From contig DATION010000001.1 in assembly GCA_035473115.1 (NCBI GenBank), forward strand, positions 461 to 64,460: a stretch of 64,000 bases of DNA, in the 5' to 3' direction. Under the pieces are notes generated by a model. The model made no database searches. It was not told the origin of the DNA and saw only the letters and a list, made by a program, of their open reading frames with translations. The DNA is from Candidatus Udaeobacter sp. Its GTDB lineage: Bacteria > Patescibacteriota > Patescibacteriia > Magasanikbacterales > GWA2-37-8. Of this stretch, positions 6,493 to 23,565 are shown piece after piece (the first letter of the stretch is position 1; each line of letters starts with the position of its first letter). The position numbers and the translations under genes were made by a program.

Positions 6493-7455
6493 TTAGTTAA
6501 TCGTTCGGCTAGTACTTCTAAAATCATCGGGGTTGATCTCGTTTGATACCATAATTCGAACTAGACTCGTTCTATTCATCCCCAGGGATCTGGCGGCTTT
6601 TGATACATTGCCCTTGGCCTGTATAAGAGCCTCTCTTACTTGGTTAGCCTTGATTTGTCTGGTTGCAGCTTTAAGATCATTTTTAATGAGCGCAGGCGGC
6701 GGTTCCATTAGAAGTGGCATATCAGCAACGCCAGCCTCTGTTCCTTCACAGGCAATAACCATGCGCTCTACCACGTTGCGCAATTCGCGAATATTTCCCG
6801 GCCACGAATATTGGCGAAGCTTCGTTCGCGCTTCGGAGCTGATGCTGGTGACGATTGAAGATGGGTTTTCTCTTTTTACCTGACCCAGCAGGTGGTCAGT
6901 TATAGAGTCAATATCTTCTCTGCGTTCGCGCAGTGGCGGTAAACGCACACTTACTACGTTAAGACGATAAAACAGATCTTGGCGGAAGCGCTTCAGTTGT
7001 ACTAACTCCTCAAGGTTAGCATTGGTGGCGCAAACAATTCGAACGTCAATCGGAATTTCTTTGGTTGCTCCGATCCGACGCACTAGTCTTTTTTCTGCAA
7101 CTCGCAACAGCTTAGCCTGAGCGGCTTCTGACATCTCTCCTATCTCATCCAGGAAGACTGTTCCTGCGTAAGCTTGCTCAAATACTCCAGGATGTGCCGC
7201 GAATGCACCGGTAAAGGCGCCTCGCTCATGGCCAAACAGCTCGCTTTCAATAAGATGCTGGTTGAGTGCGGAGCAGTTGATAGCCACTAGCGGACCAGTC
7301 TTGCCACGAGGGCTTCGAGTATGGATATACTCCGCTAGCAGCTCTTTGCCCGTGCCGGTTTCTCCGGTTATTACTACCGAACAATTTCCTTGCTCGGCAG
7401 CTTTGGTTGCTATTGCCATGAGATCCAACATCGCTCTAGTCTTTCCAATAATCAT
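6493..7455 (-). CDS. Sigma-54-dependent transcriptional activator, PspF-like (AAA+ plus HTH, no sensor domain)
   Basis: Walker A GETGTGKE and the GAFTGA sigma-54 contact motif. C-terminal Fis-type HTH. 320 aa, with GC visibly above its neighbours. Confidence 0.8.
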   Translation of the reverse strand: MIIGKTRAMLDLMAIATKAAEQGNCSVVITGETGTGKELLAEYIHTRSPRGKTGPLVAINCSALNQHLIESELFGHERGAFTGAFAAHPGVFEQAYAGTVFLDEIGEMSEAAQAKLLRVAEKRLVRRIGATKEIPIDVRIVCATNANLEELVQLKRFRQDLFYRLNVVSVRLPPLRERREDIDSITDHLLGQVKRENPSSIVTSISSEARTKLRQYSWPGNIRELRNVVERMVIACEGTEAGVADMPLLMEPPPALIKNDLKAATRQIKANQVREALIQAKGNVSKAARSLGMNRTSLVRIMVSNEINPDDFRSTSRTIN

Positions 7456-7542
7456 TTGGACCTCCTTTGTTGAGAACGTATTTTATTTTAACTGCAAATT
7501 TAACGGTTTGTCAATGTAAAAAAAGAAGTTTTTTGCCAGTGT

Positions 7543-8727
7543 TTAAAAAGCCGATTCTTTTTTTATGCCCGGACGAAGAACTTTAAAAGATAAGAAGAAA
7601 CAAACCAAAAGCAAAAGACCGCCAACTAGGAAAGTCACAGGAATAGAAATAGCGGTAGCAATAACTCCGCCTAGGATTGGGCCCAGTATCATGCCAATAC
7701 TTTGATATGATGTGTTTAGACCCATAATTGAACCCTGAGATTTTTCATCAGCTTCTTGAGAAAGAATAGTAGGGATAAGAGTTTGAGACAGGCTGTTGAA
7801 AAGAGCCAGGCCGATTATGGTAATTACAAAAACGATAATAGAATGGGATAAAGACATTATTATGAGTGATAAGGCAGTAAAGAATATGCCGGTGCTGAAT
7901 GATTTTTTTGTGCCTAATTTTTTGGCTACTCGTCCAACCAAAAATGTTTGCGCGATCAGTCCAATAGCTCCAAAAAGAGTAAACAGTAGCGCGTTTTGTG
8001 ACTGAGTGATATGCAAAATATTTAAAGTAAATGGCTGGAAGCCGTAAATGATTGAACAGGCAAAGGCTAAAAAGAAAAAGAAAGATATCAGAAAGGTGGC
8101 GCCGACATTGGGGTCAAATAAAGTTTTCCAGATGAGTTTAAAATCAAAAAGTTTGCCATTTTTGACTTCGCCCATGTGCTTGTTTGTTTCCGGCAAATAA
8201 AGCGCTGTAAGTATAGCGGCAATAGTGGTAATCACACCAGCAATAATAAAAGGTAAAGCTGGATGTAGAGCGATCGTAAGGGCGGCAATAGCCGGACCAA
8301 AAACAAAACCAAAATTAAAAGCCGAGCTGATCAAGCCAAAGGCTTTGGCGCGCTCTTCTGGTTTAGTTGAATCAGAAATAACGGCAAAAGCTACCGGGAT
8401 ATTGCCGGCAGTTAAACCATCCAGAGCGCGGGATAATAATAAAAATAGTGCGCTGGGCGCAAAAGCCATCATAAAAAACGATAGAGCTGTACCGATAATT
8501 GAGATCAGCAGCATTGGCCGGCGGCCATATTTATCCGATAGTCGGCCGATTATGGGAGTGGAAAAAAATTGGCAAATGGAATAAGTGGCGAACAATAAGC
8601 CATTTTGAAAATCGGATAAACCAAATTTTTTGGAATAGGAATAAAGCAGGGGAATAATAATTCCATAGCCAAGCATATTCACCAGCGCGATCAGAGCGAT
8701 GATTAATAGGTTTTTATTTTTTATCAT
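7543..8727 (-). CDS. MFS transporter (DHA1/TetA-like)
   Basis: About 12 predicted TM helices. MFS signature GRLSDKYGRRP. Confidence 0.85.
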   Translation of the reverse strand: MIKNKNLLIIALIALVNMLGYGIIIPLLYSYSKKFGLSDFQNGLLFATYSICQFFSTPIIGRLSDKYGRRPMLLISIIGTALSFFMMAFAPSALFLLLSRALDGLTAGNIPVAFAVISDSTKPEERAKAFGLISSAFNFGFVFGPAIAALTIALHPALPFIIAGVITTIAAILTALYLPETNKHMGEVKNGKLFDFKLIWKTLFDPNVGATFLISFFFFLAFACSIIYGFQPFTLNILHITQSQNALLFTLFGAIGLIAQTFLVGRVAKKLGTKKSFSTGIFFTALSLIIMSLSHSIIVFVITIIGLALFNSLSQTLIPTILSQEADEKSQGSIMGLNTSYQSIGMILGPILGGVIATAISIPVTFLVGGLLLLVCFFLSFKVLRPGIKKESAF

Positions 8728-8741
8728 ATTAGCTATCTAAT

Positions 8742-9359
8742 TTATAAAAGTATTCCAAAATTTTGTAAATCCTTTTTGAGTTGTTCGTTATCTTGAAACA
8801 AAATTGGATGATAGCCAATTTCAGCGGCTTTTTCCAAACTTTTACTAGCATCATCTATAAAAATTGTTTCTTGAGGCAATACGTTTAGCTTTTCAAATAG
8901 GTGCAGAAACGCTTCTTTATGAGGTTTTTGAAAGCCAATCTCGGAAGAAATAACAATCACGTCGGTTAGGTTATGTATTCCTTGAGCTTCGATTTCTTGT
9001 CTAAGTTTTGAAGTATTATTGCTTAAAATACCAACTTTGAATCCTTGCTGTTTTAAAACTGTAAACCAAGACAAAAGCTCGGTATTTAATTTTTTGCTGG
9101 TACTCCATTTATGGATCAGGGCTCTGACAGCACTTTCGGTTTCAGTGTTATCGCTAAAAGTTTTAACTGCTTTAATAATTATTTCTTCCCAGTTTTGATT
9201 GCCGATATTTGTTAAATGATTATGTTTAAAGTATTCGGCGCGAAAGTCGGCTAAAGGCACATTTAACAGTTCGGCAATTTTTGGCAATATTTTGCCGTAT
9301 TCGTAGAGTTCAATAACTCCGCCAAAATCAAAACAGACAGCTTTAATATCGGGTATCAT
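8742..9359 (-). CDS. HAD-superfamily hydrolase
   Basis: Motif I CFDFGGV and a motif IV-like FIDD. Confidence 0.75.
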   Translation of the reverse strand: MIPDIKAVCFDFGGVIELYEYGKILPKIAELLNVPLADFRAEYFKHNHLTNIGNQNWEEIIIKAVKTFSDNTETESAVRALIHKWSTSKKLNTELLSWFTVLKQQGFKVGILSNNTSKLRQEIEAQGIHNLTDVIVISSEIGFQKPHKEAFLHLFEKLNVLPQETIFIDDASKSLEKAAEIGYHPILFQDNEQLKKDLQNFGILL

Positions 9360-9385
9360 TAGGGAGTGTTAATTATTTATGACGA

Positions 9386-10189
9386 TTATTTTTGCGGGTA
9401 CCAGTTTAGCTGAACAACTTCTATATTTGGATCAGCGGCGTTTACTAGTTGTTTAAATTTAGCTACATCAGCCAGTTCGTTTGGATGGCCATTATTATAG
9501 CCATAATGGTATGGATAAACCTGTTTTGGTTTAAATGCTAAGACAGCATCAGCTGCTTGCTCTATACTCATAGTATATGGCAAGTTCATAGGGACAAAAG
9601 CGATATCTATATTTTTTAGGGCGCGCATTTCCGGAACATCTTCAGTATCACCGGCAATATAGACGCGAGTGCCGCTAGATTCTAAAACATAGCCATTACC
9701 ATTTCCTTTCGGATGTTTATCTAGGTCTGCCGAGCGTAAGTTATAAGCTGGAACAGCTTGGATATTAATATTTTTTTGGCTGGTAGTGTCGTTATTTTTT
9801 AGAACAATCAAGTTGTGGGTCAGAGTTTTAGGCAGTTTAGCAGCAATTACTGACGGCACTATTAAAACAGTATTAGGCTGCATTATTTTTGCTAAAGTAT
9901 CAGGACTAAAATGATCTGGGTGTTCATGAGTTATCACTATAATATCTGGTTTTGGCACATTGGCGTAGCTTTCCGGAGCTCCGACCGGATCAGCATAAAC
10001 AACGGCAGTTTTCCAATCAAGCACCACAGACGCGTGGGAGATAGGAGTTATTTTTATATTAGGATTAGTTGTTATAGGAGAGCCGGCCATAGAGTTTTGG
10101 GTTTGTTTTTGGCGAGTAAAATTTTTTAAGATTAATAATCCCGCTGCCAAGACAACGACTGTGATTAAAAGTAGTAGTTTAGTTTTCAT
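9386..10189 (-). CDS. MBL-fold metallo-hydrolase, membrane-anchored or secreted
   Basis: N-terminal TM or signal segment. HEHPDH metallo-beta-lactamase motif. Confidence 0.8.
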   Translation of the reverse strand: MKTKLLLLITVVVLAAGLLILKNFTRQKQTQNSMAGSPITTNPNIKITPISHASVVLDWKTAVVYADPVGAPESYANVPKPDIIVITHEHPDHFSPDTLAKIMQPNTVLIVPSVIAAKLPKTLTHNLIVLKNNDTTSQKNINIQAVPAYNLRSADLDKHPKGNGNGYVLESSGTRVYIAGDTEDVPEMRALKNIDIAFVPMNLPYTMSIEQAADAVLAFKPKQVYPYHYGYNNGHPNELADVAKFKQLVNAADPNIEVVQLNWYPQK

Positions 10190-10260
10190 ATTTGATTAAA
10201 ATTGTTTTATTAAAAACTTATCAAAGTATAACATACAATCTAGAGTTTATAAAGTCGGAA

Positions 10261-11352
10261 TTATTTTTGATAATATTGTTTTCTTTTTAGTAAAGAAGTG
10301 TTGCAGGCTGGCTGATTGGCCGCCTCTAAAGAAGCGCAAAATGTTTCTGTTTTTTCGATGGAGTTATAGTTTACCAGATGATATGAAACGAGTCCGTCAA
10401 TACAGGCTGATTTAACAGCTTGATTATCAATTTGCTCGCAAATACTTTCTGCTTTTTTTGGATTGTTCAGGTTGGTAGCCATAATATAGCTGCCCATACC
10501 GCTAACGCATTGATTTATATATCCCGATTCGGAAAAGTTGCAGGCAGAAAATAAATCAGTATTTGTTTTTAAGTTTTGTTTGGCTAAATAAGCGCCGGCA
10601 TAAAGATAGCAGGCAGGCTTAAAGTGTGTTTCCGTTCGGCAGATTTTTAGCGGATCATTAGGGAAAAAATAAGGTGTAGCGTACATCTGTAGTTCACTGC
10701 TTTCAAAATTTTGCATAAATACTCCTTCGGAACAGCGAGTTTGATGTTCGTTTGTATCTAGTGTCAGACAGTAGTTGGCAGAGTCGGGCACATTATTTTT
10801 GGTATAGAACATTAGTCCGTGGCCAATGCCGTGATAACAAAAACCGTCCATGCCATCGCACAAAGAATGGATAGTGTCGGTTGGGTTGGCAGAAGCATTA
10901 AGTACATTTATGGCTAATCCGTGCACATAACCCGAACCGCAGATATCGTCGTTAAATTTTATCGCCTCTTTGAAGTTTTTGTATTTTATAAAAGCTGATT
11001 CGCCGATTGTATGCGCAAGCAGATGGCAGCGGCTGGCGACATTATCATCGGCCATTAATCGGCGCAGCTGGGCGAAGGCTGCTGCTGGGTTTTGGTTTTT
11101 TACAATCTCGTCTAGTTGTTGGTCAATCATGGGGATAGTAGAGCTTGTCATCTGTCCAATCCGTATTATATTTGAAGTATCATTATGAGCCGCCATTAAA
11201 ATTCTTTGGTTGTTTGCTGGTTTAGATTGTAGCCATGATAAATTTAGAGGGAATAAATTTTTTGTATTTAAGCAAAATGAAATAATCAGGATGATTATGA
11301 CAGCAAATAAAAAAATACCGTACTTATGTTTTTTAAGTAACACCGGAACCAT
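10261..11352 (-). CDS. Cys-rich exported hypothetical protein
   Basis: N-terminal TM anchor, at least 20 Cys, and a CYHGIGHG motif. No family recognised. Confidence 0.4.
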   Translation of the reverse strand: MVPVLLKKHKYGIFLFAVIIILIISFCLNTKNLFPLNLSWLQSKPANNQRILMAAHNDTSNIIRIGQMTSSTIPMIDQQLDEIVKNQNPAAAFAQLRRLMADDNVASRCHLLAHTIGESAFIKYKNFKEAIKFNDDICGSGYVHGLAINVLNASANPTDTIHSLCDGMDGFCYHGIGHGLMFYTKNNVPDSANYCLTLDTNEHQTRCSEGVFMQNFESSELQMYATPYFFPNDPLKICRTETHFKPACYLYAGAYLAKQNLKTNTDLFSACNFSESGYINQCVSGMGSYIMATNLNNPKKAESICEQIDNQAVKSACIDGLVSYHLVNYNSIEKTETFCASLEAANQPACNTSLLKRKQYYQK

Positions 11353-11359
11353 GAAGTTA

Positions 11360-11482
11360 TTATCTTCTTTTCTTAGAAGCTTTTTTGGCCAGCATCTGTT
11401 TTTTGATTTCCAAGCGCTTTTTTGTTTTTGGAGAATGTTTGGATTTAGTTTTCTTGCGTAGGCTGTTTGGTCTTTTTGCCAT
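11360..11482 (-). CDS. Small highly basic 40-aa ORF (MAKRPNSLRKKTKSKHSPKTKKRLEIKKQMLAKKASKKRR)
   Basis: Read by eye. Below the ORF-track size cutoff. Lies 8 nt upstream of the next gene on the same strand. Confidence 0.25.
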   Translation of the reverse strand: MAKRPNSLRKKTKSKHSPKTKKRLEIKKQMLAKKASKKRR

Positions 11483-11612
11483 ATATTATAAAAATAATAA
11501 ATTAAGTTTAAGATATTTTAGCACAACTCTGGTAATATAGCCAGAGATAAACATTTTTGTTTGTTATTATGTGTGGTATAATTTAATAGGAGTAAATAAT
11601 TAACTTAATAAT

Positions 11613-12461
11613 ATGGATAAAGCTAAAGTGGAAAGAATATTCAATTCGGTCACATTGTTTTTTATCAACGCAGCTATTATTATCATAGCTGAAAGTACCG
11701 GGCAATTATTTTTCCGCATGGGGTTAATACATATTATCGCGCTCTTGTTTATCGCCCTATCAGTTATCAGAATATTTGTCCGTTATTATTCCTATGATTC
11801 TGTCTTAGAGAAATTTTTCCAAGCCAGTTTAGCCGCTTTGTTCGTTTTTACCATTGCCCATATTGTGGAGTACTTTAATATGACTATGGGTATGTCTGCT
11901 TATTATTCCGATGCAGCCTTGGTTAATACGGCTAACTTTTACTTAATCAGTTTAATAATTATTATAATTGGAGCTGACGCTTTTTTGCGCATTTACGATA
12001 ATCGTTCCCGAGCCAGAATAAATTTTTTAATCGGTTTGATTGCCGCTCTGGTTGTTTTGATTTTTGTATTTACCGCCAAGAAAGATTTGGCTTCATTGGA
12101 ACTTGATGAACCGATGCCTTATGTATATCTGGCAGCAGTATTTACTTTTGGCTTGCTAGCCTTAAGAAAGGTTCGTTTAATTGGCAAGCGAGTAGGTATC
12201 TCTACCGCCTTTGCCAAGTTGCTTTCAGCTTCTATTATTTTGCTAATGCTTTCAACAGTTCCATATATTCTTTATGATTTATTAGAAGAACATTTTGGTT
12301 TCCCTCTTTATCAAATAATGTATTTGAGCCACTTTATTTTTTACGCTTCTTTAAGTCTGTTATTTTTAGCTTTTGGCAGGGTTAAAATTATGGGCGGGGT
12401 TTATGAAGATTTAAACAAAAATTCTTCAGACAAACCTGATTCAAAAGTTTGTTTATCTTAA
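11613..12461 (+). CDS. Integral membrane protein
   Basis: 282 aa with multiple hydrophobic helices. No motif recognised. Confidence 0.5.
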   Translation: MDKAKVERIFNSVTLFFINAAIIIIAESTGQLFFRMGLIHIIALLFIALSVIRIFVRYYSYDSVLEKFFQASLAALFVFTIAHIVEYFNMTMGMSAYYSDAALVNTANFYLISLIIIIIGADAFLRIYDNRSRARINFLIGLIAALVVLIFVFTAKKDLASLELDEPMPYVYLAAVFTFGLLALRKVRLIGKRVGISTAFAKLLSASIILLMLSTVPYILYDLLEEHFGFPLYQIMYLSHFIFYASLSLLFLAFGRVKIMGGVYEDLNKNSSDKPDSKVCLS

Positions 12462-12465
12462 AATT

Positions 12466-12541
12466 AAAAGCACCGACCCCCTTCTTGCGAAAAAGGTCGG
12501 CTTGACTAGCGCATAGTCACGAGACTGCTGTCTGCAGTCTC
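12466..12541 (-). terminator. Two hairpins after the RCC1 gene
   Basis: Perfect 9-bp stem CGAGACTGC/GCAGTCTCG. Then a CCGACC/GGTCGG stem followed on the minus strand by a T-rich run. Confidence 0.45.
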
Positions 12542-12557
12542 GGTTCGGTCTCCTGTA

Positions 12558-13883
12558 CTACTGGAAGATCACCGAGATGATCTTGGCCGGATTGTTCTGG
12601 GGGAGGAACGTCCCGTTGCCCACTTGGCCGGAAGATCCGTTGCCTTCACACCAGACACTCGTTTCCCAGTTCACCGGAGACGTGCTGGTGAGAGCATCGC
12701 TCAATTCGGAGCACTGAGTGTGGCCGCCACCAGAGACTGCGACGTAGCCTCTGTTTTGAGTCGCCGGCAAGGGCGGCATGCCCGAAGCCAGCGTGGCGGA
12801 AGTCTTGTCGATCATCGTCAGGTCTCCGAGCTGACGATTGTTATTGTAACCCCAGCACCACAAGTGCGGAGGAAACTTGGGAGAAACCGGATCCTGCTTC
12901 GAAACGCAGGAGTGGTTCTGGCCCAGTTTGTCACCCACCCGCGCGAGAGACGTGCCACTGGGCAGTCCCAACACGAGCGCCGGCGAGGTCTGATCAACTC
13001 TGTTGCCATTGCCGACCTGTCCATAGAAATTGTAGCCCCAGCAGCGCAGAAGGTCATCTGAGAAGCCCAGCCCGCAGGTATGCGATCCGCCTGCGGAAAT
13101 TGAGATGAAGTTCTGCAGAACTCTGGTCGGCCGTGGCTGGGACACAAAGCCGCCGATTCCGAGCTGGCCATGGTCATTGTCTCCCCAGCAGTACGTTACC
13201 CCGGTGGCAAGATCCATGACCACGCATGCGTGCTGTGGACCTGCCGTCCAACTGTAGAAGCCGCCCTGAACGGTGGTGGTAAGATTGCCAACTCCGTTCG
13301 GGTTCACGACAGGCGTCGGCAGGTTCTTCAGGCCGCTGAAGGTGCCGATGCCAAGCTGGCCGTTGGTGTTCTCACCCCAACAACGGAGTTGGTAGGTGAT
13401 CGGGTTCACCGTGGATGTCACGATCTCGGCGCAGGTGTAGTTGCCGGCGGCGGTAACCCAGACCACATTGCTCATGACCCGGGTCGGGGTAGCCTGGTTG
13501 GTAAAGTTACCAATCCCGAGCTGCCCTTCGAGGTTCCGGCCCCAGCAGTAGAGGTCCTGGTTCCCGATGCCGCTGGGATCCTTGAGTCCGCAGGCGTGTT
13601 CGGCACCGACCGACACCCACGTCCAGACCAGGGTTGGCGTGGCTGGGATCGTCGCCAGTCCAGCAGCTACAGGCACAGAAGAAGGGCTGAACCCTCCCGT
13701 TCCGAGCTGTCCCTTGTCGTTGCTGCCCCAGCAGAGCATCTTGCCTGCCAGGCTACCCAGTCGAGTAGTCTGTTTGTACACATAGCATCCGCTCGTATCC
13801 CCCACGGATAGGCGGGATGCCTCTGCCGTGCTGGCAGAGAGCATCAGGAATAGACCGAGAATGATGTACAAGAGCCTTTGCAT
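12558..13883 (-). CDS. Secreted RCC1-repeat (beta-propeller) protein, GC-rich
   Basis: Signal peptide. Repeated CWGxNxxGQLG RCC1 motifs. GC visibly about 60% against roughly 37% flanks. Confidence 0.8.
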   Translation of the reverse strand: MQRLLYIILGLFLMLSASTAEASRLSVGDTSGCYVYKQTTRLGSLAGKMLCWGSNDKGQLGTGGFSPSSVPVAAGLATIPATPTLVWTWVSVGAEHACGLKDPSGIGNQDLYCWGRNLEGQLGIGNFTNQATPTRVMSNVVWVTAAGNYTCAEIVTSTVNPITYQLRCWGENTNGQLGIGTFSGLKNLPTPVVNPNGVGNLTTTVQGGFYSWTAGPQHACVVMDLATGVTYCWGDNDHGQLGIGGFVSQPRPTRVLQNFISISAGGSHTCGLGFSDDLLRCWGYNFYGQVGNGNRVDQTSPALVLGLPSGTSLARVGDKLGQNHSCVSKQDPVSPKFPPHLWCWGYNNNRQLGDLTMIDKTSATLASGMPPLPATQNRGYVAVSGGGHTQCSELSDALTSTSPVNWETSVWCEGNGSSGQVGNGTFLPQNNPAKIISVIFQ

Positions 13884-13946
13884 TTGTTTCCCTTTCAGTC
13901 GTAACTCTACGTGTCTGTATCAGCCATCCGAATTGATGGCGGCGCA

Positions 13947-13975
13947 ATCTTAGCAGATAGGCCAAAAAATGTCAA
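13947..13975 (-). promoter_or_regulatory. Sigma-70-type promoter for the RCC1 gene
   Basis: Minus strand: TTGACA, 17-nt spacer, TAAGAT. The same style of element recurs at the other GC-rich ORFs. Confidence 0.5.
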
Positions 13976-14037
13976 TGGGAGTATCAACGTTCTTTCAGAT
14001 TGACATTGGCCGAATTTAGGTCTATCATAATATAACT

Positions 14038-14427
14038 ATGAATAAAAACTCTTACTTTAACCTATTTTTTTGGCTAATAATCGGCCTAAGTCTAGCTTTT
14101 TATGCTAACTCAACAGCTTTAGCTGCAACTGCCAAGACTTCTGAAGCTAAACATATTGTTAAGCCTCAAGTTCAAAGTACTGCCAAAAAAACTGTTGTGA
14201 CTCAATTAAAAGACAAAACAGTTGCCTCGCCAGCCAAAAATACTTCCGTTGTTTCAACAAATAAGCCGGCAGATACTTGTATGCAAGCTATTGCTAAGGC
14301 TAATAAAGAATGCAAAGCTATTTCGCAAGGCTGCCACTCTTTTAGCGAAACTCCTCGCTGTAAATCGGCCGATCAAACTTGTGCCGATAAGCAGCAGGCT
14401 GCTATGGAGCTTTGCGGGGTTAAGTAG
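14038..14427 (+). CDS. Small secreted Cys-containing hypothetical protein
   Basis: Signal peptide, Lys/Thr-rich linker, C-terminal part with 6 Cys. Confidence 0.5.
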   Translation: MNKNSYFNLFFWLIIGLSLAFYANSTALAATAKTSEAKHIVKPQVQSTAKKTVVTQLKDKTVASPAKNTSVVSTNKPADTCMQAIAKANKECKAISQGCHSFSETPRCKSADQTCADKQQAAMELCGVK

Positions 14428-14482
14428 TCAAAGTTTAATAGTGAATAATTGGTTAGCCTGTCGTCATAAAATTAAATAATAA

Positions 14483-14518
14483 TAAAAAACAGCTCGTCTA
14501 GTAACGAGCTGTTTTTTA
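14483..14518. terminator. Bidirectional rho-independent terminator
   Basis: Perfect hairpin AACAGCTCGT ... ACGAGCTGTT with A6 and T6 flanks, between convergent genes. Confidence 0.7.
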
Positions 14519-14920
14519 TTATCTTTTGTAAGGATGCTTTTTCATGGCCTTTTTTGCTGTAGTTCCTGGTGGCGCGTTTCTGGTAAATACATCCTGGCCA
14601 ATAAGCATTGATTCCCAATTGTCGGCCGGATTAGTCGTTTGATTTAAAAGCCACATGGTAGTTAGAGTCTCCTGGCCGTTTATCATTTGTAACTGACCGC
14701 ACCAGGCAGTGGTTGATTGCAGATCCGAGGTGCTGTTGTTCCATACTACCACCATGCCGAAAGTTTGCCCGGCGGCTTGCACTGGATCAACCATGCCAGT
14801 CATTTGAAAAACACCTTGACCTCCGACCGCGCTTTGGTAGGTGCCGGTAAGCATCTGACCGCTGGCTTTAATGATTACTTTTGAACCAAGTTCGTTGTAC
14901 CACACGCCATTAATATTCAT
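14519..14920 (-). CDS. Avidin/streptavidin-family biotin-binding protein
   Basis: Alignable by eye to the streptavidin core: [51 protein letters not shown] versus [52 protein letters not shown]. Confidence 0.8.
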   Translation of the reverse strand: [133 protein letters not shown]

Positions 14921-15031
14921 AATTTTTTTAAAAATTAATTAAGTACGACAAAAACTAAATTAAATTAATATAAAATATAATTTTAGATCATAGCCCTCCT
15001 TTCTTAGTCAATTTTTGATAAATTTATAGAC

Positions 15032-15463
15032 TTATCTTTTTGGTTGCAGCATGGAAAATCGGTTGCCCTCGGTGTCCATAGCCGAAATCCAAAGCCCAAC
15101 ACCCGGTATATCTTGCGGCTCGTCGCTATGCTGGCCTGCTTCGTTCATTGTGCCAAGGATTTTCCCGCCAGCAGTTTTGACGTCAGTCATTGCTTGGTTA
15201 ATATCTTCAACGGCAATGACAACCGACGGAGCGTGTGATGAAGGGTTATCTGTTTTTTGATAAAATCCGCCGTTAATGTTACCTGGATTTTTTATCATTC
15301 CTTTGTCATCAGTTTCGGTGGTTTGCGCAACTACATAACTGCCCATGTCTAGCCCCATCATTTGGGTTTGCCAGCCAAAGACATTGGTATAAAAATCAAC
15401 CATCCGTTGCTTATCTTGGTAGCCCATTTCAAAATGGACTACTGGGCTCATTTTTTTGTGCAT
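15032..15463 (-). CDS. VOC (glyoxalase/bleomycin-resistance) family protein
   Basis: VHFEMGY...FYTNVFGW N-terminus typical of the VOC/PhnB-like fold. Confidence 0.7.
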   Translation of the reverse strand: MHKKMSPVVHFEMGYQDKQRMVDFYTNVFGWQTQMMGLDMGSYVVAQTTETDDKGMIKNPGNINGGFYQKTDNPSSHAPSVVIAVEDINQAMTDVKTAGGKILGTMNEAGQHSDEPQDIPGVGLWISAMDTEGNRFSMLQPKR

Positions 15464-15511
15464 AAATTTTATTTAAAATTAATTAAAGTTTATTTTATTA
15501 TAGCAAAAGAA

Positions 15512-15940
15512 TTAGGAATGCGCCTTCTTCATATATTGATACGATCTCTTGATAAGAGACGCAAGCACTTTTTCATCAACATCAGATAGTTTGTTGATAT
15601 ACAAACAGCCACCGATGCCAGCACTTGTTTTATATTTTCCCAGTTTGCCAAGTAACTCGTGGCTATCCTTATTGCCGTGCATGATATAAAGTGTAAGGTT
15701 TTGTTTTCGTGGAGAGAAACCAGTTAACATCCAGTCTCCTTCTTGGGCGCTTCTGTCGGATTTATAATGATACTTGCCGAAACCAACAATACTTGTTCCC
15801 CAGATGACCGCTTTTTCACCGGTAACCTGCTCAAATATTTTAAGCAGCGCAAAACCATCTGTCCGTTTTTCTTTGGGTCCAATGGAGTTGAGAAATTTTT
15901 TAACGCTTGTTTTAGTTGCTTTGGTTTTTAATTCAGCCAT
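15512..15940 (-). CDS. DUF1801 (YdhG-like) domain protein
   Basis: Overall pattern including FGKYHY is typical of DUF1801. Confidence 0.6.
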   Translation of the reverse strand: MAELKTKATKTSVKKFLNSIGPKEKRTDGFALLKIFEQVTGEKAVIWGTSIVGFGKYHYKSDRSAQEGDWMLTGFSPRKQNLTLYIMHGNKDSHELLGKLGKYKTSAGIGGCLYINKLSDVDEKVLASLIKRSYQYMKKAHS

Positions 15941-15946
15941 ATAATT

Positions 15947-16237
15947 TTAACGATGAGGGCAGCCTGCCCAACAACAGGGTCGACGCATACCTTTACGCAT
16001 CTTATCAAGACCAACTGTTATACGCCGGTCTCTGGTTTCAGCTTGCTTGGCAGATGTCACCCAACAAATCCATTCATTGCGGGCAAGCGGCGTAATATCA
16101 TCCCACACCGACAGCGCCTTGGGGTCAGAAGCAAGGGCTTTCCGAAAATCTGGTGGGAGTTTATGCTTGCTTGTTCGTAACTCTCCATGGCGAGCGGAGG
16201 CGGATGGTACACTGATAGAAATTTCTTTTTTGATCAT
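15947..16237 (-). CDS. YdeI/OmpD-associated family protein
   Basis: C-terminal WICWVTSAKQAETRDRRI matches the family pattern W(I)xxAKrxETRxrRI. Confidence 0.6.
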   Translation of the reverse strand: MIKKEISISVPSASARHGELRTSKHKLPPDFRKALASDPKALSVWDDITPLARNEWICWVTSAKQAETRDRRITVGLDKMRKGMRRPCCWAGCPHR

Positions 16238-16247
16238 ATGTTTATCA

Positions 16248-16514
16248 TTATCTTTTGTTCCGCCCGTATAAAAACCATCCTATTAAAATGATAGCTGATA
16301 TTATAGCGCCAATAATATTAGGTATGATTATAGGGGTGTTTTTTATCTCAAACCCGTACAGTATCCAGATAAATGATCCAATAGTTGTTATAAAGTAGGT
16401 AGTAGCAGAAACGTCTCCGGCGCTTTTATTTCTGAATATTTTTATTGCTTGAGGAAGAGCTCCGAAGCCTAAAAAAATACCCGAGATTGTAGCCAAAATA
16501 GAAAGTATTGTCAT
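16248..16514 (-). CDS. SemiSWEET (PQ-loop) sugar transporter
   Basis: 88 aa, three TM helices, PQ motif (GALPQAIKIF). Confidence 0.8.
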   Translation of the reverse strand: MTILSILATISGIFLGFGALPQAIKIFRNKSAGDVSATTYFITTIGSFIWILYGFEIKNTPIIIPNIIGAIISAIILIGWFLYGRNKR

Positions 16515-16630
16515 ATTTAATTTATTATATCATATACAAAAAATAAACCTATAATAGGGTTTATTTTTGTTTTTGGCTCGCATACACGGACAGCTTCCGA
16601 ACTTTTTTATCTAAGAATTTAAACCTCCTT

Positions 16631-17116
16631 CTATCTCAGGTTTAAATTTTTCAGTCGCCACATCATTGCTTCGCGGCTCACCTGATATTGTTCAGACAAT
16701 TCTATCAACCGATCTTCATAAGAACCATCTAATTTTCTAAAGTCGTTTAATAGTAGTTGTTTGGGCATAAGTAAATTCGCAGCAAAATCATCCGCTCTTT
16801 TTTCAAAAATAGTTTTATCCGGACGATTATTGTTATCCCTATAGTCAATGGAGACGGCTGTAGTACTTTCTAAAAAGAAGTGGCCGAGTTCGTGGGCGAT
16901 AGTGAAGCGGCGTCTCGCCGGAGACTCCTCAGTATTAATACCCATAAGAGCGCCACCATTTTTGCGTATTAAAATACCAGAATATTCAACGCTGGGAGCG
17001 TAGCTGATCTGAATATTCATTTTTTCTGCAATCTGTTCGACAGGTACCGGTGCCTCAGTTACCTTAAAGTGGGTAAGAATTTTCCGAACTTTCGCTTGTA
17101 TAATTTGACTGGACAT
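16631..17116 (-). CDS. ImmA/IrrE-family metallopeptidase
   Basis: HEXXH motif (HELGHF). Confidence 0.8.
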   Translation of the reverse strand: MSSQIIQAKVRKILTHFKVTEAPVPVEQIAEKMNIQISYAPSVEYSGILIRKNGGALMGINTEESPARRRFTIAHELGHFFLESTTAVSIDYRDNNNRPDKTIFEKRADDFAANLLMPKQLLLNDFRKLDGSYEDRLIELSEQYQVSREAMMWRLKNLNLR

Positions 17117-17118
17117 AA

Positions 17119-17529
17119 CTATTTATTTACTTTACCAAAAATTTTCTCCGCCCACTCTGCCGCGTTCTCATCTTTCTTTTTTATATTTTCAACGTCTATT
17201 TGGCTAAGTTCATAGCCCTTTGGAATGTCTGGAAAAAAATCTTTAACTTCACACCCCAGGATTGTGGCAAGTTTCCAGAGAGTGACAGCATTAACATGAT
17301 TTTGGCCGTTTTCAAGCTGAGTCAAAGCGACACGGCTCACACCTAATTTATGAGCCACCACTTCGGCGGTCAGAAAACCACGAGAATTTCTGCGTATTTT
17401 TTTTATCTTCGCCCCGATCTCTTCTTTGACCGTTTGTTCAATGTCTTTCTTAACGTTAATTATAGCCGATCGATCAAGATTGGACAACTTGGGGACAGGA
17501 AGTATTGCAGGGTTACTTTTTGTTTTCAT
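17119..17529 (-). CDS. XRE-family HTH transcriptional regulator
   Basis: HTH_3 region (LTAEVVAHKLGVSRVALTQLENGQ). Co-oriented with, and immediately upstream of, the ImmA peptidase. Confidence 0.8.
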   Translation of the reverse strand: MKTKSNPAILPVPKLSNLDRSAIINVKKDIEQTVKEEIGAKIKKIRRNSRGFLTAEVVAHKLGVSRVALTQLENGQNHVNAVTLWKLATILGCEVKDFFPDIPKGYELSQIDVENIKKKDENAAEWAEKIFGKVNK

Positions 17530-17530
17530 A

Positions 17531-17577
17531 GCTTACATATGTAAGCACAGATTACAGTACTGTAAAGTACAGCTTAC
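17531..17577. promoter_or_regulatory. Palindromic operator cluster upstream of the XRE gene
   Basis: Perfect 16-bp palindrome GCTTACATATGTAAGC (17531-17546). Perfect 12-bp palindrome TACAGTACTGTA (17553-17564). Another GCTTAC half-site at 17572. Confidence 0.55.
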
Positions 17578-17719
17578 ACAATTATAGTATAATCTATCAT
17601 TTGCAATTTGTCAAGATGTATGGTAGACTTAAGGTCTAGAAGGGAAATACCTTTAAAGATTTATTACTTTACGTGGCATCCTCGCCAACCGAGGGTCACG
17701 CTATACCTAAGCTAAAAAT

Positions 17720-17953
17720 ATGGCAAGGAATCAACAACACGTTGTACGACGCGATGAAGGGTGGGCGGTAAGAGGCGCTGGAAACTCCAGAGATACTGCG
17801 CATACCAAAACTCAAGGCAAAGCAATTGATATTGCACGAAACATTGCGATTAACCAAAAGGCGGAAGTGGTCATTCACGATCGGCACGGTAAAATTCGCG
17901 ATTCAGATTCTTACGGAAATGACCCAAGCAATATCAAGGATACTAAATTTTAA
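17720..17953 (+). CDS. DUF2188 family protein
   Basis: 77 aa with VVRRDEGWAVRGAGNSRDTAHTKTQGKAIDIARNIA...VVIHDRHGKIRDSDSYGNDP, the typical DUF2188 pattern. Confidence 0.65.
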   Translation: MARNQQHVVRRDEGWAVRGAGNSRDTAHTKTQGKAIDIARNIAINQKAEVVIHDRHGKIRDSDSYGNDPSNIKDTKF

Positions 17954-18067
17954 TCATTTAAACAAGCCGTCCAATGAAACGATGTAATGCGCCAGCGCTT
18001 CAATCGTGGCACTCTTTATTCTACCAGGCTTCGGTTACGAAGCCGGCTACTAAAACATTCTATCTAT

Positions 18068-18301
18068 ATGGCAAACGATAAAAAACCAATCGTGGAAATA
18101 ACGATAAATAATACACACTACAGCATTGAGCGTGGAAATTACTCTGTAGAGCAAATTAAAAATCTTGGACATGTGCCACTTGCCGACGATCTGCTTGAAA
18201 TTTTAGATAAAAAACTTAAAACTTTAAATGATAATGCTCACGTCGAGATTAAAGGCGGCGAAGTATTTGTTAGCCATCCAAAGGGTAGCGCATCCTCCTA
18301 A
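18068..18301 (+). CDS. Small ubiquitin-like (beta-grasp) protein
   Basis: 77 aa from the internal ATG at 18068 (MANDKKPIVEITINN...EIKGGEVFVSHPKGSASS). First gene of an operon with E2-like, JAB and E1 genes. Stop overlaps the next start (TAATATG). Confidence 0.5.
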   Translation: MANDKKPIVEITINNTHYSIERGNYSVEQIKNLGHVPLADDLLEILDKKLKTLNDNAHVEIKGGEVFVSHPKGSASS

Positions 18302-18302
18302 T

Positions 18303-18653
18303 ATGCGCGACCTTCCTTTGGACGAACTGGACGAGCTCAAGCTGGTTTGTGTATCGTTGAGTATAGCAGAGGAGGCTGGTCTCAGGTATATTCTTCTTCA
18401 AGGGTTGAATCTTCCAGTTGGCTGCCTCCCGGATAGAACAGATGCGTTGTTTTGCCCGATGCCACGCGACGGCTACTTGTCGAGATTATTTTTCGCAGAG
18501 AAGGTTAAGTTTCCAGGTGTTGAAAATCCCAACTGGAACGCAACTGACGTTCGGATACTTGAACGAAACTGGCACGCTATTTCATGGAAAGTACCCAGGG
18601 AGGATTTGCGCCTGGCTCAAATACTTTCAGATCATCTAAATCCACACATGTGA
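18303..18653 (+). CDS. Putative E2-like conjugating protein (divergent)
   Basis: 116 aa from the ATG overlapping the upstream stop. Conserved Cys residues (VGCLPD, FCPMP). Assigned mainly from operon position. Confidence 0.35.
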   Translation: MRDLPLDELDELKLVCVSLSIAEEAGLRYILLQGLNLPVGCLPDRTDALFCPMPRDGYLSRLFFAEKVKFPGVENPNWNATDVRILERNWHAISWKVPREDLRLAQILSDHLNPHM

Positions 18654-19147
18654 AAATCATAGTACGTATTAATGAAACACTTTATAAGCGCATGCTCGCT
18701 GATTTGAAGCGCTCACATCCAACCGCCTTTGAGCGAGTGGGTTTTGCTTTTGCAAAACAAGGCAAGGTGTCTAAAGAAGAGGTCCTTATCTTGTTTTGCG
18801 ACTACCTGTCATTACCAGATGGCTGTTATGTGGCTGATGAAAATGTAGGAGCGCAGATAAATTCAACCGGAATCAATATGGCGATGCAAAAAATTCTTGA
18901 CGAGCAGCAAGGCGCCTTCCATGTTCACCTGCATGATTGGCCGGGCAAGCCCAATTTGAGCTTAACTGATGTCGGCGGTATTTTACCTCTAATCCCAGGG
19001 TTTCAGGCTGTAGGGCCGCAACTGCCGCACGGTGTCCTTCTTCTTAGTCGAGACAGTGTAATTTGTTATGTTTGGCTTCCTGGTTCGGGCCAGCTATTGG
19101 CAGAAAAAATTACGATTGTAGGCAAACAAATGAAATTTTATGCTTGA
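18650..19147 (+). CDS. JAB/JAMM-family metalloprotease (deubiquitinase-like)
   Basis: HVHLHDWPGKPNLSLTD fits the JAMM HxH-x(7-8)-S-xx-D signature. Probable GTG start overlapping the upstream stop; start uncertain. Confidence 0.65.
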   Translation: MKIIVRINETLYKRMLADLKRSHPTAFERVGFAFAKQGKVSKEEVLILFCDYLSLPDGCYVADENVGAQINSTGINMAMQKILDEQQGAFHVHLHDWPGKPNLSLTDVGGILPLIPGFQAVGPQLPHGVLLLSRDSVICYVWLPGSGQLLAEKITIVGKQMKFYA

Positions 19148-19943
19148 TGAACAATATTCACGACAATCATTCCTGGGGGGTAGTGTTCAAAAAAGATTCC
19201 AGGCTGTCAAGGTTGCGATAATCGGTCTTGGGGGTGGCGGTTCGCATATAGCGCAACAATTAGCGCACTTGGGAATTTTGAATTATGTTTTATACGATCC
19301 GCAAACTATCGAACTATCCAACTTAAACAGGATGGTCGGAGCGCGCCGTTCTGATGTCGGTGCTTTAAAAATTTTAGTCGCACAAAGAATAATTTTAGAT
19401 ATTCAACCCAAGGCAAATGTCTATGTTGTTGCCGATCGTTGGCAAAAAATGCCTGAGCTTTTACGTGGATGTGATATTATTTTTGGATGCGTAGACACTT
19501 TTAAAGATAGGAATGAATTAGAAGCTAGCGCGAGGCGTTATCTCATTCCATACATTGATATCGGAATGGATATTTTTAAAATTGGCAATGAGCTTCCGCG
19601 AATGGTTGGGCAAGTAATTTTGTCATTACCTGGATCTCATTGTTTACGGTGTCTGGATTTTATTACCGAACAAAATTTGGGAAACGAGGCAAGTAACTAC
19701 GGGGCTGCTGGTGGTCGTCCGCAGGTCGTTTGGCCAAATGGTATCCTAGCTTCGTCGGCTGTGGGTCTTGCAGTGAGCATGATAACAGGGTGGAATGAAA
19801 CAAATAATTTTCCAATATATTTATCTTATGACGGTAACAGTATGTGCGTTACCCGACACATACGATTAGATTATGAGTTGCCAGAAAAATGTGAGCACTT
19901 TCCTCCCAGTAAGGTCGGTGAACCAGAATATAAGAATGTTTAG
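19140..19943 (+). CDS. E1-like ThiF/MoeB-family adenylyltransferase
   Basis: YSRQ...VAIIGLGGGGSHIAQQLAHLG Rossmann motif. CxxC (HCLRC). Overlaps the JAB gene stop. Confidence 0.8.
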   Translation: MLDEQYSRQSFLGGSVQKRFQAVKVAIIGLGGGGSHIAQQLAHLGILNYVLYDPQTIELSNLNRMVGARRSDVGALKILVAQRIILDIQPKANVYVVADRWQKMPELLRGCDIIFGCVDTFKDRNELEASARRYLIPYIDIGMDIFKIGNELPRMVGQVILSLPGSHCLRCLDFITEQNLGNEASNYGAAGGRPQVVWPNGILASSAVGLAVSMITGWNETNNFPIYLSYDGNSMCVTRHIRLDYELPEKCEHFPPSKVGEPEYKNV

Positions 19944-20004
19944 ATGTTTTAATCAAAAGAAAACTGACCGTAGGGGGGGTCGTTGGCTATACAGAATAAA
20001 TTTG

Positions 20005-20076
20005 CTCCGGGGGCTGGACTCGAACCAGCGAAATCCACGTTAACAGCGTGGCGTTGTACCACTCAACTACCCCGGA
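20005..20076 (-). tRNA. tRNA-Asn (anticodon GTT)
   Basis: Manual cloverleaf: acceptor TCCGGGG/CCCCGGA, D-stem GTTG/CAAC, anticodon stem CCACG/CGTGG with loop CTGTTAA, T-arm GCTGG-TTCGAGT-CCAGC. CCA not encoded. Confidence 0.85.
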
Positions 20077-20089
20077 ATAAAATGCAAAA

Positions 20090-20115
20090 GCCCACTTTCG
20101 TGGGCATAGTTTTTA
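20090..20115 (+). terminator. Hairpin with T-run next to the tRNA
   Basis: GCCCAC-TTTC-GTGGGC followed by ATAGTTTTTA. Confidence 0.4.
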
Positions 20116-20293
20116 TATTAAAACTACACCTGTCTCAGCAGTTATTATTATTCACCAAATTATTGTTAATTATTTTCATATAGTTTATCTTAAATCTTTT
20201 GAGTTTTTCTGTCAATTTATTCTCAGTATTTTATCTATTAAAATTTGCAATTAACGTCTTTTATGATAGTTTATAGAGAAAGCGAGGCATCCG

Positions 20294-20770
20294 ATGGCGA
20301 ATCAAAAAGTTGTCGAGATCTGCATTTCTCCTGTAAAGGGAGAACCCATGCAAAGTGTAGAGCAAGTTTTGGCTGTGGCCGGACGCGGCCTTAAAGGAGA
20401 TCGTTACTTCGCAGGTGAAGGCAGCTATAGTCAAGGAAAGGTAGGAAAGCGTCAGGTGACCCTGATGAATGCGAGGTTTTTCAGGACTACAGACAAGGCT
20501 GCCAATTTTACCTTTGCTGATAGTCGGCGGAATATTTTTACTGATGGAGTAGAGTTGATGTGGTTGATTGGGCGTGAGTTTTATATTGGTGCGGCTGGTT
20601 TTAGAGGGATAAAGTATTGCGATCCTTGCAAGCGCCCTAGCCATTTGGCAGGTCTGAATGATAATTTTGCGGATGTTTTTCATGATGTAGGAGGCTTGGT
20701 AGCCGAGGTTGTGGTTACAGGATTGATTCGAGTTAATGATTCAATCATTACTCCGCCAAAAGGCTATTGA
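20294..20770 (+). CDS. MOSC-domain protein
   Basis: 158 aa with GDRYF...RQVTLM, typical of MOSC/YiiM. Confidence 0.65.
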   Translation: MANQKVVEICISPVKGEPMQSVEQVLAVAGRGLKGDRYFAGEGSYSQGKVGKRQVTLMNARFFRTTDKAANFTFADSRRNIFTDGVELMWLIGREFYIGAAGFRGIKYCDPCKRPSHLAGLNDNFADVFHDVGGLVAEVVVTGLIRVNDSIITPPKGY

Positions 20771-20789
20771 AATACAAGAAGGAGAGCTA

Positions 20790-20930
20790 ATGTGGAACAT
20801 TGTTCTAGCTGTTTTTGCAGGGCTAGGCGTGATCGGAGCCTTTTATTCTATCCTAGGGCTGATCCGCCGTGAGCGCGCAATGCGTAACTTGCATCGCCAG
20901 GTCGCAGAAGCTGGCCGTAAGAAAACGTAG
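20790..20930 (+). CDS. Small single-TM protein
   Basis: 46 aa from the internal ATG (MWNIVLAVFAGLGVIGAFYSILGLIRRER...). A hairpin with T-run follows at 20955-20988. Confidence 0.3.
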   Translation: MWNIVLAVFAGLGVIGAFYSILGLIRRERAMRNLHRQVAEAGRKKT

Positions 20931-21059
20931 CCTGTTTGTTCTTTATTCGGCGAGGTAAGCAGACGATGCTGCCTCTTTGTTTTTTTAAATTCAAACTTGT
21001 CATTATCATATTTTATTGCTAATCTATTAGAATAGTTCGATATTTATATTTGAGGATGT

Positions 21060-22298: not shown

Positions 22299-22320
22299 AA
22301 TTTTAAATAAAAATTAAAAC

Positions 22321-22355
22321 AAAAAACAGCCTTTGATTAAAACGCTGTTTTTTGT
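22321..22355. repeat. 35-bp perfect direct repeat, copy 1 (also the bidirectional terminator of proS and of the gene at 22462-23244)
   Basis: AAAAAACAGCCTTTGATTAAAACGCTGTTTTTTGT, identical to 23482-23516. Hairpin AACAGC/GCTGTT with A/T flanks. Confidence 0.8.
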
Positions 22356-22461
22356 TTTTGTCCCGACCCATGCTTCACAGCTTTGGTCAGGACGAGTTGA
22401 GTATCCGCTTCACTTCAGGAGAACGATTTCGTTCTCAGTGAAGTAGAAGTCGGATCTTCTG

Positions 22462-23473: not shown

Positions 23474-23481
23474 GATGGAAC

Positions 23482-23516: not shown

Positions 23517-23565
23517 GTTGGCCACGACTCCCTCCGTGAGTCATGGCGGATGTTGTACAACTACT

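Follow-up and report, generated by a model that had tools for sequence, protein, structure and literature searches.

Attachment to other microbes is the presumed lifestyle of Patescibacteria, and little is known of how, in molecular terms, they recognize their partners. RCC1-like propellers are binding platforms. The closest described examples are the bacterial secreted RCC1-repeat proteins (COG5184, 'alpha-tubulin suppressor-like RCC1 family'; PF00415/PF13540), the propellers of UVR8, RPGR, RCC1 and the RCC1-like domains (RLDs) of HERC2, the ectodomain of the plant receptor kinase CRINKLY4/ACR4, the propeller BLIP-II from Streptomyces exfoliatus and, within Patescibacteria, the minor pilin PilX2 of TM7x. 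Here we analyse 64,000 nucleotides (the window) of contig DATION010000001.1, filed under 'Candidatus Udaeobacter sp.', in which a short island rich in guanine plus cytosine (GC) holds a single gene (the RCC1 gene; 12558–13883, minus strand; GC 0.60, GC at third codon positions (GC3) 0.73). Its open reading frame (ORF), Pfam matches and fold model point to a predicted secreted, RCC1-like seven-bladed β-propeller of 441 amino acids. The best explanation of the island, and one that we consider probable, is that the gene was acquired singly by horizontal transfer from a GC-rich bacterial lineage and encodes a secreted binding propeller.

The coding sequence is the sole long ORF of the island and opens with ATG behind a Shine–Dalgarno-like AAGGGA; the NCBI annotation has a 437-residue version starting at an internal TTG. 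Read from the sequence, codons 1–22 (13818–13883, minus strand) specify a Sec-type signal peptide, MQRLLYIILGLFLMLSASTAEA, followed by SR, with n, h and c regions and an AxA-type site (AEA/S) whose predicted cleavage falls after AEA. This agrees with a preliminary description of the locus, which had proposed a 441-residue signal-peptide protein, strand unstated, with about seven RCC1 repeats. The signal-peptide region forms an N-terminal helix in the AlphaFold2 model, partly at low confidence. Seven C(W/E)GxNxxGQ(L/V)G motifs are present, with their C(W/E)G at residues 51, 113, 168, 232, 281, 343 and 412 and a spacing of 49–69 residues. On the minus strand they occupy 13689–13733 (blade 1, CWGSNDKGQLGTG, cysteine pair 33/51), 13503–13547 (blade 2, CWGRNLEGQLGIG, pair 98/113), 13338–13382 (blade 3, CWGENTNGQLGIG, pair 151/168), 13146–13190 (blade 4, CWGDNDHGQLGIG, pair 220/232), 12999–13043 (blade 5, CWGYNFYGQVGNG, pair 270/281), 12813–12857 (blade 6, CWGYNNNRQLGDL, pair 326/343) and 12606–12650 (blade 7, the degenerate CEGNGSSGQVGNG, pair 391/412). 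Six of the seven can be detected as one 45-nucleotide DNA repeat family. There are 14 cysteines in total, one HxC...CWG pair per blade, and the pattern is invariant across 26 homologues.

Profile and structure searches give a consistent assignment. The Pfam RCC1 model PF00415 matches in five stretches with E = 2e-44 (150.3 bits; cut-off 21.7) and PF13540 with 70.7 bits (cut-off 22); the whole-domain model PF25390 scores 142.5 bits, under its cut-off of 150, and NCBIfam has no family for the protein. AlphaFold2, run on a 26-sequence alignment, returns an all-β repeat after the N-terminal helix (predicted local distance difference test (pLDDT) 85.7, predicted template modelling score (pTM) 0.87). 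A Foldseek search against the PDB places UVR8 first (E = 1.8e-30, target-normalised template modelling (TM) score 0.85), then RPGR, the HERC2/HERC1 RLDs, RCC1 (1a12) and RCC2. At the sequence level, phmmer against all PDB chain sequences (E ≤ 1e-3) recovers 25 sequences (UVR8, HERC1/2, RPGR, RCC1, RCC2 and ACR4), with E = 2e-27 for UVR8 and 2e-7 for ACR4 (7a0j). As modelled, the gene product is an RCC1-type seven-bladed propeller, and structure prediction thereby upholds the repeat assignment made at the outset.

UVR8, RPGR, the HERC2 RLDs and RCC1 share this seven-bladed fold (E = 1e-30 to 1e-19 across the set) but are intracellular, without signal peptides or per-blade cysteine pairs. The functions known for UVR8, RCC1 and HERC2 (UV-B sensing, Ran guanine-nucleotide exchange and ubiquitin-ligase scaffolding) find no target in a bacterial setting, and Ran exchange is not expected of a protein that its sequence marks as secreted, in a bacterium without evidence of a eukaryotic host. 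The ectodomain of CRINKLY4/ACR4 is likewise an extracellular seven-bladed RCC1-like propeller with a cysteine pair in each blade, and its similarity is detectable in sequence (the 7a0j match above). CRINKLY4 extracellular propellers carry one disulfide per blade, a pattern that UVR8 and BLIP-II are without (bioRxiv 10.1101/2020.08.10.245050). By this analogy, and from its own conserved pairs, the RCC1 protein probably has one disulfide per blade as an extracellular adaptation, which would be consistent with an exported protein. CRINKLY4/ACR4 differs in that its propeller belongs to a plant receptor kinase, which also has a TNFR-like cysteine-rich domain, and in that an N-terminal strand plugs the pore; its structural match is weaker (TM 0.45–0.53), and the C-terminal TNFR-like cysteine-rich domain of CRINKLY4 type is absent from the RCC1 protein. 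The sequence ends with blade 7 and contains no lipobox, C-terminal anchor, pilin-type N-terminus or extra domain, which is why we predict a free extracellular propeller.

This prediction sets the RCC1 protein apart from the one patescibacterial system compared here. TM7x, a cultivated Saccharibacteria episymbiont, bears an RCC1 seven-blade propeller on its type IV pilus minor pilin PilX2, and the PilX2 system is implicated in host binding (PMC12206443). Like PilX2, the RCC1 protein would place an RCC1-type propeller outside a Patescibacteria cell, but PilX2 is fused to a pilin and its gene lies in a pilus locus, whereas the RCC1 protein lacks a pilin helix, carries an ordinary Sec signal and is encoded in a neighbourhood without pilus genes. 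Judging from the fold model and from these analogies, we propose, as a best guess, that the protein is secreted to bind or interfere with the surface or a protein of a partner cell, and that it is not an enzyme. An RCC1 propeller of disulfide type, freely secreted as predicted, could plausibly serve in this kind of recognition or interference, and the idea can be tested.

The preliminary description had equated the repeats with 'RCC1/BLIP-II', an equation that the comparisons do not sustain. BLIP-II is also a secreted bacterial stand-alone seven-bladed propeller of the same broad structural class, and a protein of its kind would act as a secreted inhibitor, blocking a β-lactamase, a penicillin-binding protein or another hydrolase of a neighbouring cell. 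We regard this role as very unlikely for the RCC1 protein. BLIP-II shows no detectable sequence similarity (it is missing from the phmmer PDB matches at E ≤ 1e-3), does not appear among the top 50 Foldseek matches and lacks the per-blade cysteine pattern; the neighbourhood of the gene holds no β-lactamase or penicillin-binding protein genes, just as it holds no pilus genes. The neighbours that are present encode a 129-residue secreted protein and avidin-family, glyoxalase and DUF1801 proteins, which give no functional clue.

We searched for a donor with a word-indexed search and an exhaustive HMMER search of 1.84 billion representatives (~15 billion proteins). The RCC1 family comprises 113,346 representative clusters at E ≤ 1e-3. 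Most full-length homologues have a signal peptide and exactly two cysteines per repeat, and the bacterial secreted RCC1-repeat proteins share with the gene described here the HxC...CWGxNxxGQLG signature, the two invariant cysteines per blade and a GC-rich coding sequence. The best non-self matches are 31–46% identical and are multi-repeat proteins of 570–7000 residues, with 14 to over 100 repeats; by contrast, the RCC1 protein is one seven-blade propeller of 441 residues, at most ~46% identical to them, with irregular inter-blade loops and a blade spacing of 49–69 residues, encoded on an AT-rich Patescibacteria chromosome. The contigs of three of the closest homologues were examined and are uniformly GC-rich (flanks 0.61–0.64), with genes that do not belong to the candidate phyla radiation (CPR): two-component regulators, MreB, AraC regulators and transposases flank the three homologues. 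In sequence terms the RCC1 gene looks like a single-propeller offshoot of a secreted family native to GC-rich bacteria, and the examined homologues are too distant to name a donor. Of the homologue comparison that the preliminary description had in view, the taxonomic setting (GC-rich, non-CPR contigs) was thus recovered, and the donor was not. The 'Udaeobacter' bin label was also considered as a hint to donor or host; no Verrucomicrobia or Udaeobacter names occur among the matches, and the label gains no support.

The composition of the island is sharply bounded. GC in 200-nucleotide windows is 0.33–0.37 at 12200–12500, 0.57–0.64 at 12500–13800 and 0.34–0.39 beyond 13900, so that the abrupt 1.5-kb jump first reported reappears on recomputation and uniform GC is not seen. 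The coding sequence has a GC of 0.597 against 0.392 ± 0.021 in background windows of 1326 nucleotides (z = 9.7). Host genes in the window average GC 0.40 and GC3 0.34 (0.344 ± 0.05 over 50 host ORFs), from which the RCC1 gene, with its GC3 of 0.73, deviates by z of ~8–10. Codon usage departs in the same way: relative synonymous codon usage of the RCC1 gene correlates with that of the host pool at r = −0.26, against 0.56–0.82 for single host genes. Amino-acid composition is not the cause of the bias, because a Gly/Thr-rich host surface protein of 2058 residues has a GC3 of 0.30. Maximum-likelihood GC change points fall at 12469, 8 nucleotides past the stop codon of the convergent neighbour and at the terminator foot, and at ~13842, within the signal-peptide codons, which together with the 5′ untranslated region (UTR) have a GC of ~0.45–0.5. 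The edges of the island match one complete promoter–ORF–terminator unit.

The promoter of that unit, previously described as TTGACA-17-TAAGAT, was located at 13975–13947 on the minus strand and proves to be of the extended −10 type, with the −35 hexamer TTGACA at 13970–13975 and, across a 17-nucleotide spacer, the element TGC-TAAGAT at 13947–13955. The pattern TTGAC-N15-TGnTAnnnT occurs four times in the window against 0.19 expected. The form found at the RCC1 gene, TTGACA-17-TGCTAAGAT, recurs at 23445–23473 (minus strand) upstream of another GC-rich gene, and TTGACT-N-TGnTAnnAT precedes host genes at 29868 and 59644; the proposal that the gene carries host-type expression signals is borne out by this sharing of one promoter type between GC-rich units and host genes. 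A GC-rich discriminator and 5′ UTR (13884–13946, minus strand; ~57 nucleotides, GC ~0.5) follow, with a 6-bp 5′ hairpin (GCCAUC/GAUGGC) and the Shine–Dalgarno-like AAGGGA at 13889–13894; the fold of this UTR has no significant structure (z = −1.2). The 3′ tail folds into three hairpins (ΔG −41.1 kcal/mol, z = −4.8). Two of these, GC-rich, of 9 and 6 bp and without a T-run, lie at 12503–12542 (minus strand), and the last is a canonical intrinsic terminator at 12461–12501 (minus strand; hairpin 12501–12472 with a 13-bp stem and a CGCAAG loop, then a T-run). The GC-rich hairpins and the termination described earlier are therefore there, but the hairpins number three rather than two and the last of them is the terminator. 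The convergent host gene at 11613–12461 has its stop codon directly against this terminator, which may serve both genes.

Two further observations concern this stretch. ARAGORN calls a 91-nucleotide tRNA-Ser(GCT) at 13672–13762 (minus strand) inside the RCC1 ORF, which we reject as a false positive: there is no Rfam tRNA match at gathering threshold or at E ≤ 1, and the segment lies in frame within the conserved coding sequence. On the other strand, a divergent promoter (TTGACA-17-TATCAT, 14000–14037, plus strand) occupies the same 154-bp intergenic region as the RCC1 promoter. It ends 10 nucleotides upstream of the ATG of the gene for the 129-residue secreted protein (14038–14427), which would therefore have a leaderless or very short-leader mRNA.

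The public record lists the exact RCC1 protein as hypothetical and assigns it to a 'Candidatus Udaeobacter sp.' metagenome-assembled genome (MAG), on a 65-kb contig with locus tags VLK22_.... The contents of the contig speak for a different host. The histidyl-tRNA synthetase (HisRS) of the window is 86%, 79% and 71% identical to those of Patescibacteria MAGs; orthologues of the membrane protein next to the island (11613–12461) are 66–73% identical, two of them named Ca. Buchananbacteria, and flanking genes reach 78–89% identity to a Ca. Magasanikbacteria genome. On account of these matches the contig is not verrucomicrobial. The window also encodes EF-G, EF-Tu, the L3-L4-L2-S3 ribosomal operon and SecY (54704–55978). 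A published Ca. Udaeobacter MAG has 55.2% GC (PMC7343977), against 40% for this contig. By these sequence comparisons the host is an AT-rich CPR bacterium (Magasanik-, Buchanan- or Uhrbacteria-like Patescibacteria), and HisRS, the neighbouring genes, the ribosomal operon and the 40% GC together indicate that the 'Udaeobacter' contig was probably mis-binned.

A demonstrably wrong bin for this contig raises the question of whether a fragment of some GC-rich organism was spliced into a Patescibacteria contig during assembly or binning. We judge this extremely improbable. In the Logan assembly of SRR9656165, made with a second assembler, window positions 6726–22347 recur at 100% identity as one contig of 15,622 bp, which covers both junctions. 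The compositional edges are moreover those of a complete promoter–ORF–terminator unit, the ORF is intact, the junctions are without repeats, and the same architecture occurs at least five more times in the window and again in a Patescibacteria locus from another sample (L017).

The position of the gene can be read against a conserved backbone. In this clade the order runs ThyA, dUTPase, kinase, dCMP deaminase, pyruvate kinase, L1, (peptidase M10), membrane protein, further genes, PQ-loop, further genes, HisRS, DUF5671 and the tryptophanyl-tRNA synthetase (TrpRS). The slot directly after the membrane protein holds the RCC1 gene in the window and a different gene in each of six relatives (L082, L083, L084, L086, L091 and L092). 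These slot genes encode 82 to 773 residues and have a GC3 of 0.32–0.49, much nearer host values than the 0.73 of the RCC1 gene. No RCC1 homologue was found by tblastn among 88 Patescibacteria loci (~1.5 Mb). A metagenome scan with the 129-residue neighbour (14038–14427), made in search of an empty site, found no relatives; those reached by way of the membrane protein all have another gene in the slot.

The same synteny bears on the size of the transferred unit. Most genes between L1 (6321) and HisRS (21060) are without counterpart in relatives, and the region includes a helix–turn–helix (HTH)/M78-peptidase pair and a tRNA-Asn (20004–20076), as might be expected had a larger mobile island of ~6.4–20.8 kb, beside the tRNA, brought in the RCC1 gene. 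Such an origin is highly improbable in our view: the neighbours are host-like in GC and codon usage, conserved backbone genes (the membrane protein and PQ-loop) interrupt the region, and neither an integrase nor an att repeat of the tRNA is present. Within this interval, the variable segment 16631–20770 carries an HTH_3/peptidase M78 (ImmA-like) pair, a DUF2188 gene, a MOSC gene, the tRNA-Asn and a gene for a 187-residue protein overlapping a ThiF/E1-like gene (18584–19943). It may be the remnant of a mobile or defence module, with no att repeat found. Two genes from the RCC1 gene, the avidin-family protein (PF01382, 133 residues; 14519–14920, minus strand) has a slightly raised GC of 0.47 and no counterpart in the syntenic relatives.

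The RCC1 gene is one of at least six gene-sized GC-rich units in the window. The others are genes for a coiled-coil protein (22462–23244, minus strand) and a Cys-rich protein (23566–24303, minus strand), for paralogous lipoproteins with poly-Gly and Cys-rich ends (61603–62124 and 63218–63724) and for a 71-residue peptide (62408–62623). In each unit the GC-rich tract opens directly past a TTGAC-17-TAnnnT promoter and closes at a terminator. The coiled-coil and Cys-rich genes lie together within 22299–24610, between HisRS and the DUF5671 gene, with a GC of 0.59–0.61 and a GC3 of 0.69–0.71, and are absent between HisRS and DUF5671 in L002, L019, L082 and L086. L017, however, has an orthologue of the Cys-rich gene at the same site (960–2290 of that locus). 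The two proteins are 34% identical and their genes have a GC3 of 0.69 (window) and 0.87 (L017); the upstream terminator, promoter, 5′ leader and downstream terminator are conserved. The leader contains a block of ~50 nucleotides with four mismatches, a hairpin and an upstream ORF of 7–8 codons. It belongs to no Rfam family; of 92 loci, just the window and L017 have its motif, which is also missing from the JGI metagenome contigs. The Cys-rich protein has one other homologue in the word-indexed database.

The age of this unit is the telling point. For HisRS and TrpRS, synonymous divergence (dS) between the window and the L017 lineage is 2.0–2.7 (saturated), with a four-fold-site identity of 31–40%. 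If the age of the Cys-rich unit matches what its flanks suggest, its high GC3 ought to have been lost to neutral amelioration, yet it persists; either its GC-richness has been maintained or its coding part has been repeatedly replaced. A GC-rich syntenic orthologue in the face of saturated synonymous sites means that high GC need not signify recent transfer here; GC-richness by itself is no proof of a recent arrival, and the argument from it to a recent single-gene transfer is weaker than it seems. The HisRS–TrpRS locus is itself clearly recombinogenic, in that the HisRS and TrpRS trees are discordant.

The RCC1 gene could on this evidence be a long-standing resident, one member of a GC-rich accessory class (mostly secreted, Cys-rich proteins) whose GC is actively kept up, either through selection on mRNA or codons or because the coding part is exchanged time and again while the regulatory flanks around it are conserved. 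The recurrence of the units in the window, their shared limits between −10 box and terminator and the syntenic pair with L017, with its conserved regulatory flanks, would all accord with this. So would the codon usage of the RCC1 gene, which correlates at 0.66–0.68 with the genes of the 22.4–24.3 kb island, and the occurrence of single-gene high-GC3 islands in other Patescibacteria loci. Even so, we think residence rather unlikely. The 88 Patescibacteria loci yielded no orthologue of the RCC1 gene, unrelated genes fill its slot in six relatives, and the closest family members with examined contigs are native to GC-rich non-CPR bacteria; the case for residence stems from a single pair of orthologues elsewhere in the window, where allele exchange can be demonstrated, and no mechanism for GC maintenance is known. 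It is because of these unrelated slot genes, and of the examined family members in GC-rich bacteria, that the L017 case does not overturn transfer of the RCC1 gene.

We accordingly favour single-gene acquisition, which draws on the foreign composition, the absence of the gene from relatives, its homologues in GC-rich non-CPR DNA and the junctions reproduced by Logan. A segment of ~1.5 kb (~12469–13946) with one gene would have come from a GC-rich bacterial lineage and entered the core chromosome by insertion at a hypervariable slot, directly downstream of the conserved membrane-protein gene. It would be transcribed from a σ70-type extended −10 promoter of the kind used by the host, with transcription stopping at the intrinsic terminator. 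The product would be exported through Sec with cleavage of the 22-residue signal peptide, leaving a mature protein of ~419 residues that consists of one free RCC1-like propeller of seven blades, each blade with two conserved cysteines. Outside the cell it would serve as a binding module whose target is a protein or a surface structure of a partner cell, a host cell or a competitor.

Several points weigh against this account. No donor was found, and no homologue exceeds ~46% identity among ~15 billion proteins; such a gap alongside unameliorated GC3 fits a fast-evolving resident as well as it fits an unsampled donor. An exact empty site was not found either; all relatives vary at the slot, and their anchor protein is only 66–73% identical. 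No integrase or transposase genes adjoin the RCC1 gene, there is no target-site duplication or terminal inverted repeat (direct and inverted repeats at the junctions are short, chance-level matches), and the tRNA-Asn has no att copy and no partial copy longer than 12 nucleotides anywhere. The Logan contig and the MAG were possibly built from the same reads. The Cys-rich unit indicates that GC-richness can persist in this lineage, and composition does not date the RCC1 insertion. The binding role, finally, is drawn from fold and analogy, with no ligand, partner gene or operon context in its support. The 'clear' acquisition of the preliminary description is thus upheld in its foreign composition and codons and in the absence of the gene from syntenic relatives, but not in donor, mobility signature or exact empty site.

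Individually transferred genes are common and well documented in Patescibacteria, most of the reported transfers being between Patescibacteria (PMC12455944). The RCC1 gene resembles these cases as a foreign single gene in a streamlined CPR genome and differs in that its composition and family point outside the AT-rich CPR, with the donor not recovered. Taken alone it is an ordinary horizontal transfer of a very common repeat family, and of a known kind on both counts, as a bacterial secreted RCC1-repeat protein and as a single-gene acquisition by a CPR genome. It illustrates how streamlined genomes can take up single foreign genes under host-type promoters. What novelty remains lies in the persistence of GC-rich units, at least one of them apparently old, in an AT-rich genome, a more interesting question than the RCC1 gene itself.

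One answer would be a general one: a class of gene-sized GC-rich units, encoding secreted or Cys-rich proteins and a peptide resembling ribosomally synthesized and post-translationally modified peptides (RiPPs), that keeps a GC3 of ~0.6–0.9 in AT-rich Patescibacteria past synonymous saturation. We hold such a class to be unlikely. Were it real, it would imply an undescribed process: either coding cassettes from GC-rich partner or host bacteria are swapped repeatedly between AT-rich promoter/leader and terminator modules that stay conserved, or gene-specific selection favours GC-rich mRNA. The units at 61500–64000 form a tandem array of at least three, each with a near-identical AT-rich module (a terminator hairpin and gtaTTGAC-17-TATATT) in front and a conserved GC-rich 3′ tail. 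The 71-residue peptide of the middle unit has a double-glycine leader, in which ...LGTTELKGVVGG is followed by YQTATRGNTDCASEATGCYTTEWSCPGWSCW, and weakly matches lanthipeptide and radical SAM (rSAM)-RiPP leader models (NF038153, E = 3.6e-4, just under the cut-off). Elsewhere, among the Patescibacteria loci fetched around HisRS, single genes with a GC3 of 0.75–0.91 occur in genomes of 0.41–0.53 GC (L009:3359–4279, L045:3160–3891, L062:5029–5625, L047:12059–13258 and L005/L007:~9293–9832); they include MetK (L047) and small Gly-rich lipoproteins.

Minor observations concern the synthetases and a large neighbour. HisRS of the window (21060–22298) is 85–86% identical to those of L002 and L017 and only 59–61% to those of L019, L082 and L086, whereas TrpRS (25202–26176) and other backbone genes reach 80–85% identity with L019, L082 and L086 and 69% with L002. 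Such discordance suggests, from sequence identity, that the HisRS allele was replaced within the clade; the HisRS type of the window is also nearer (68–70%) to the HisRS of GC-rich Patescibacteria (0.58–0.66). The 2058-residue protein cited above for its low GC3 (33948–40124, plus strand) has Kelch motifs, many domains of FN3 and purple-acid-phosphatase-N type and host-like codon usage, and is probably a giant cell-surface protein.

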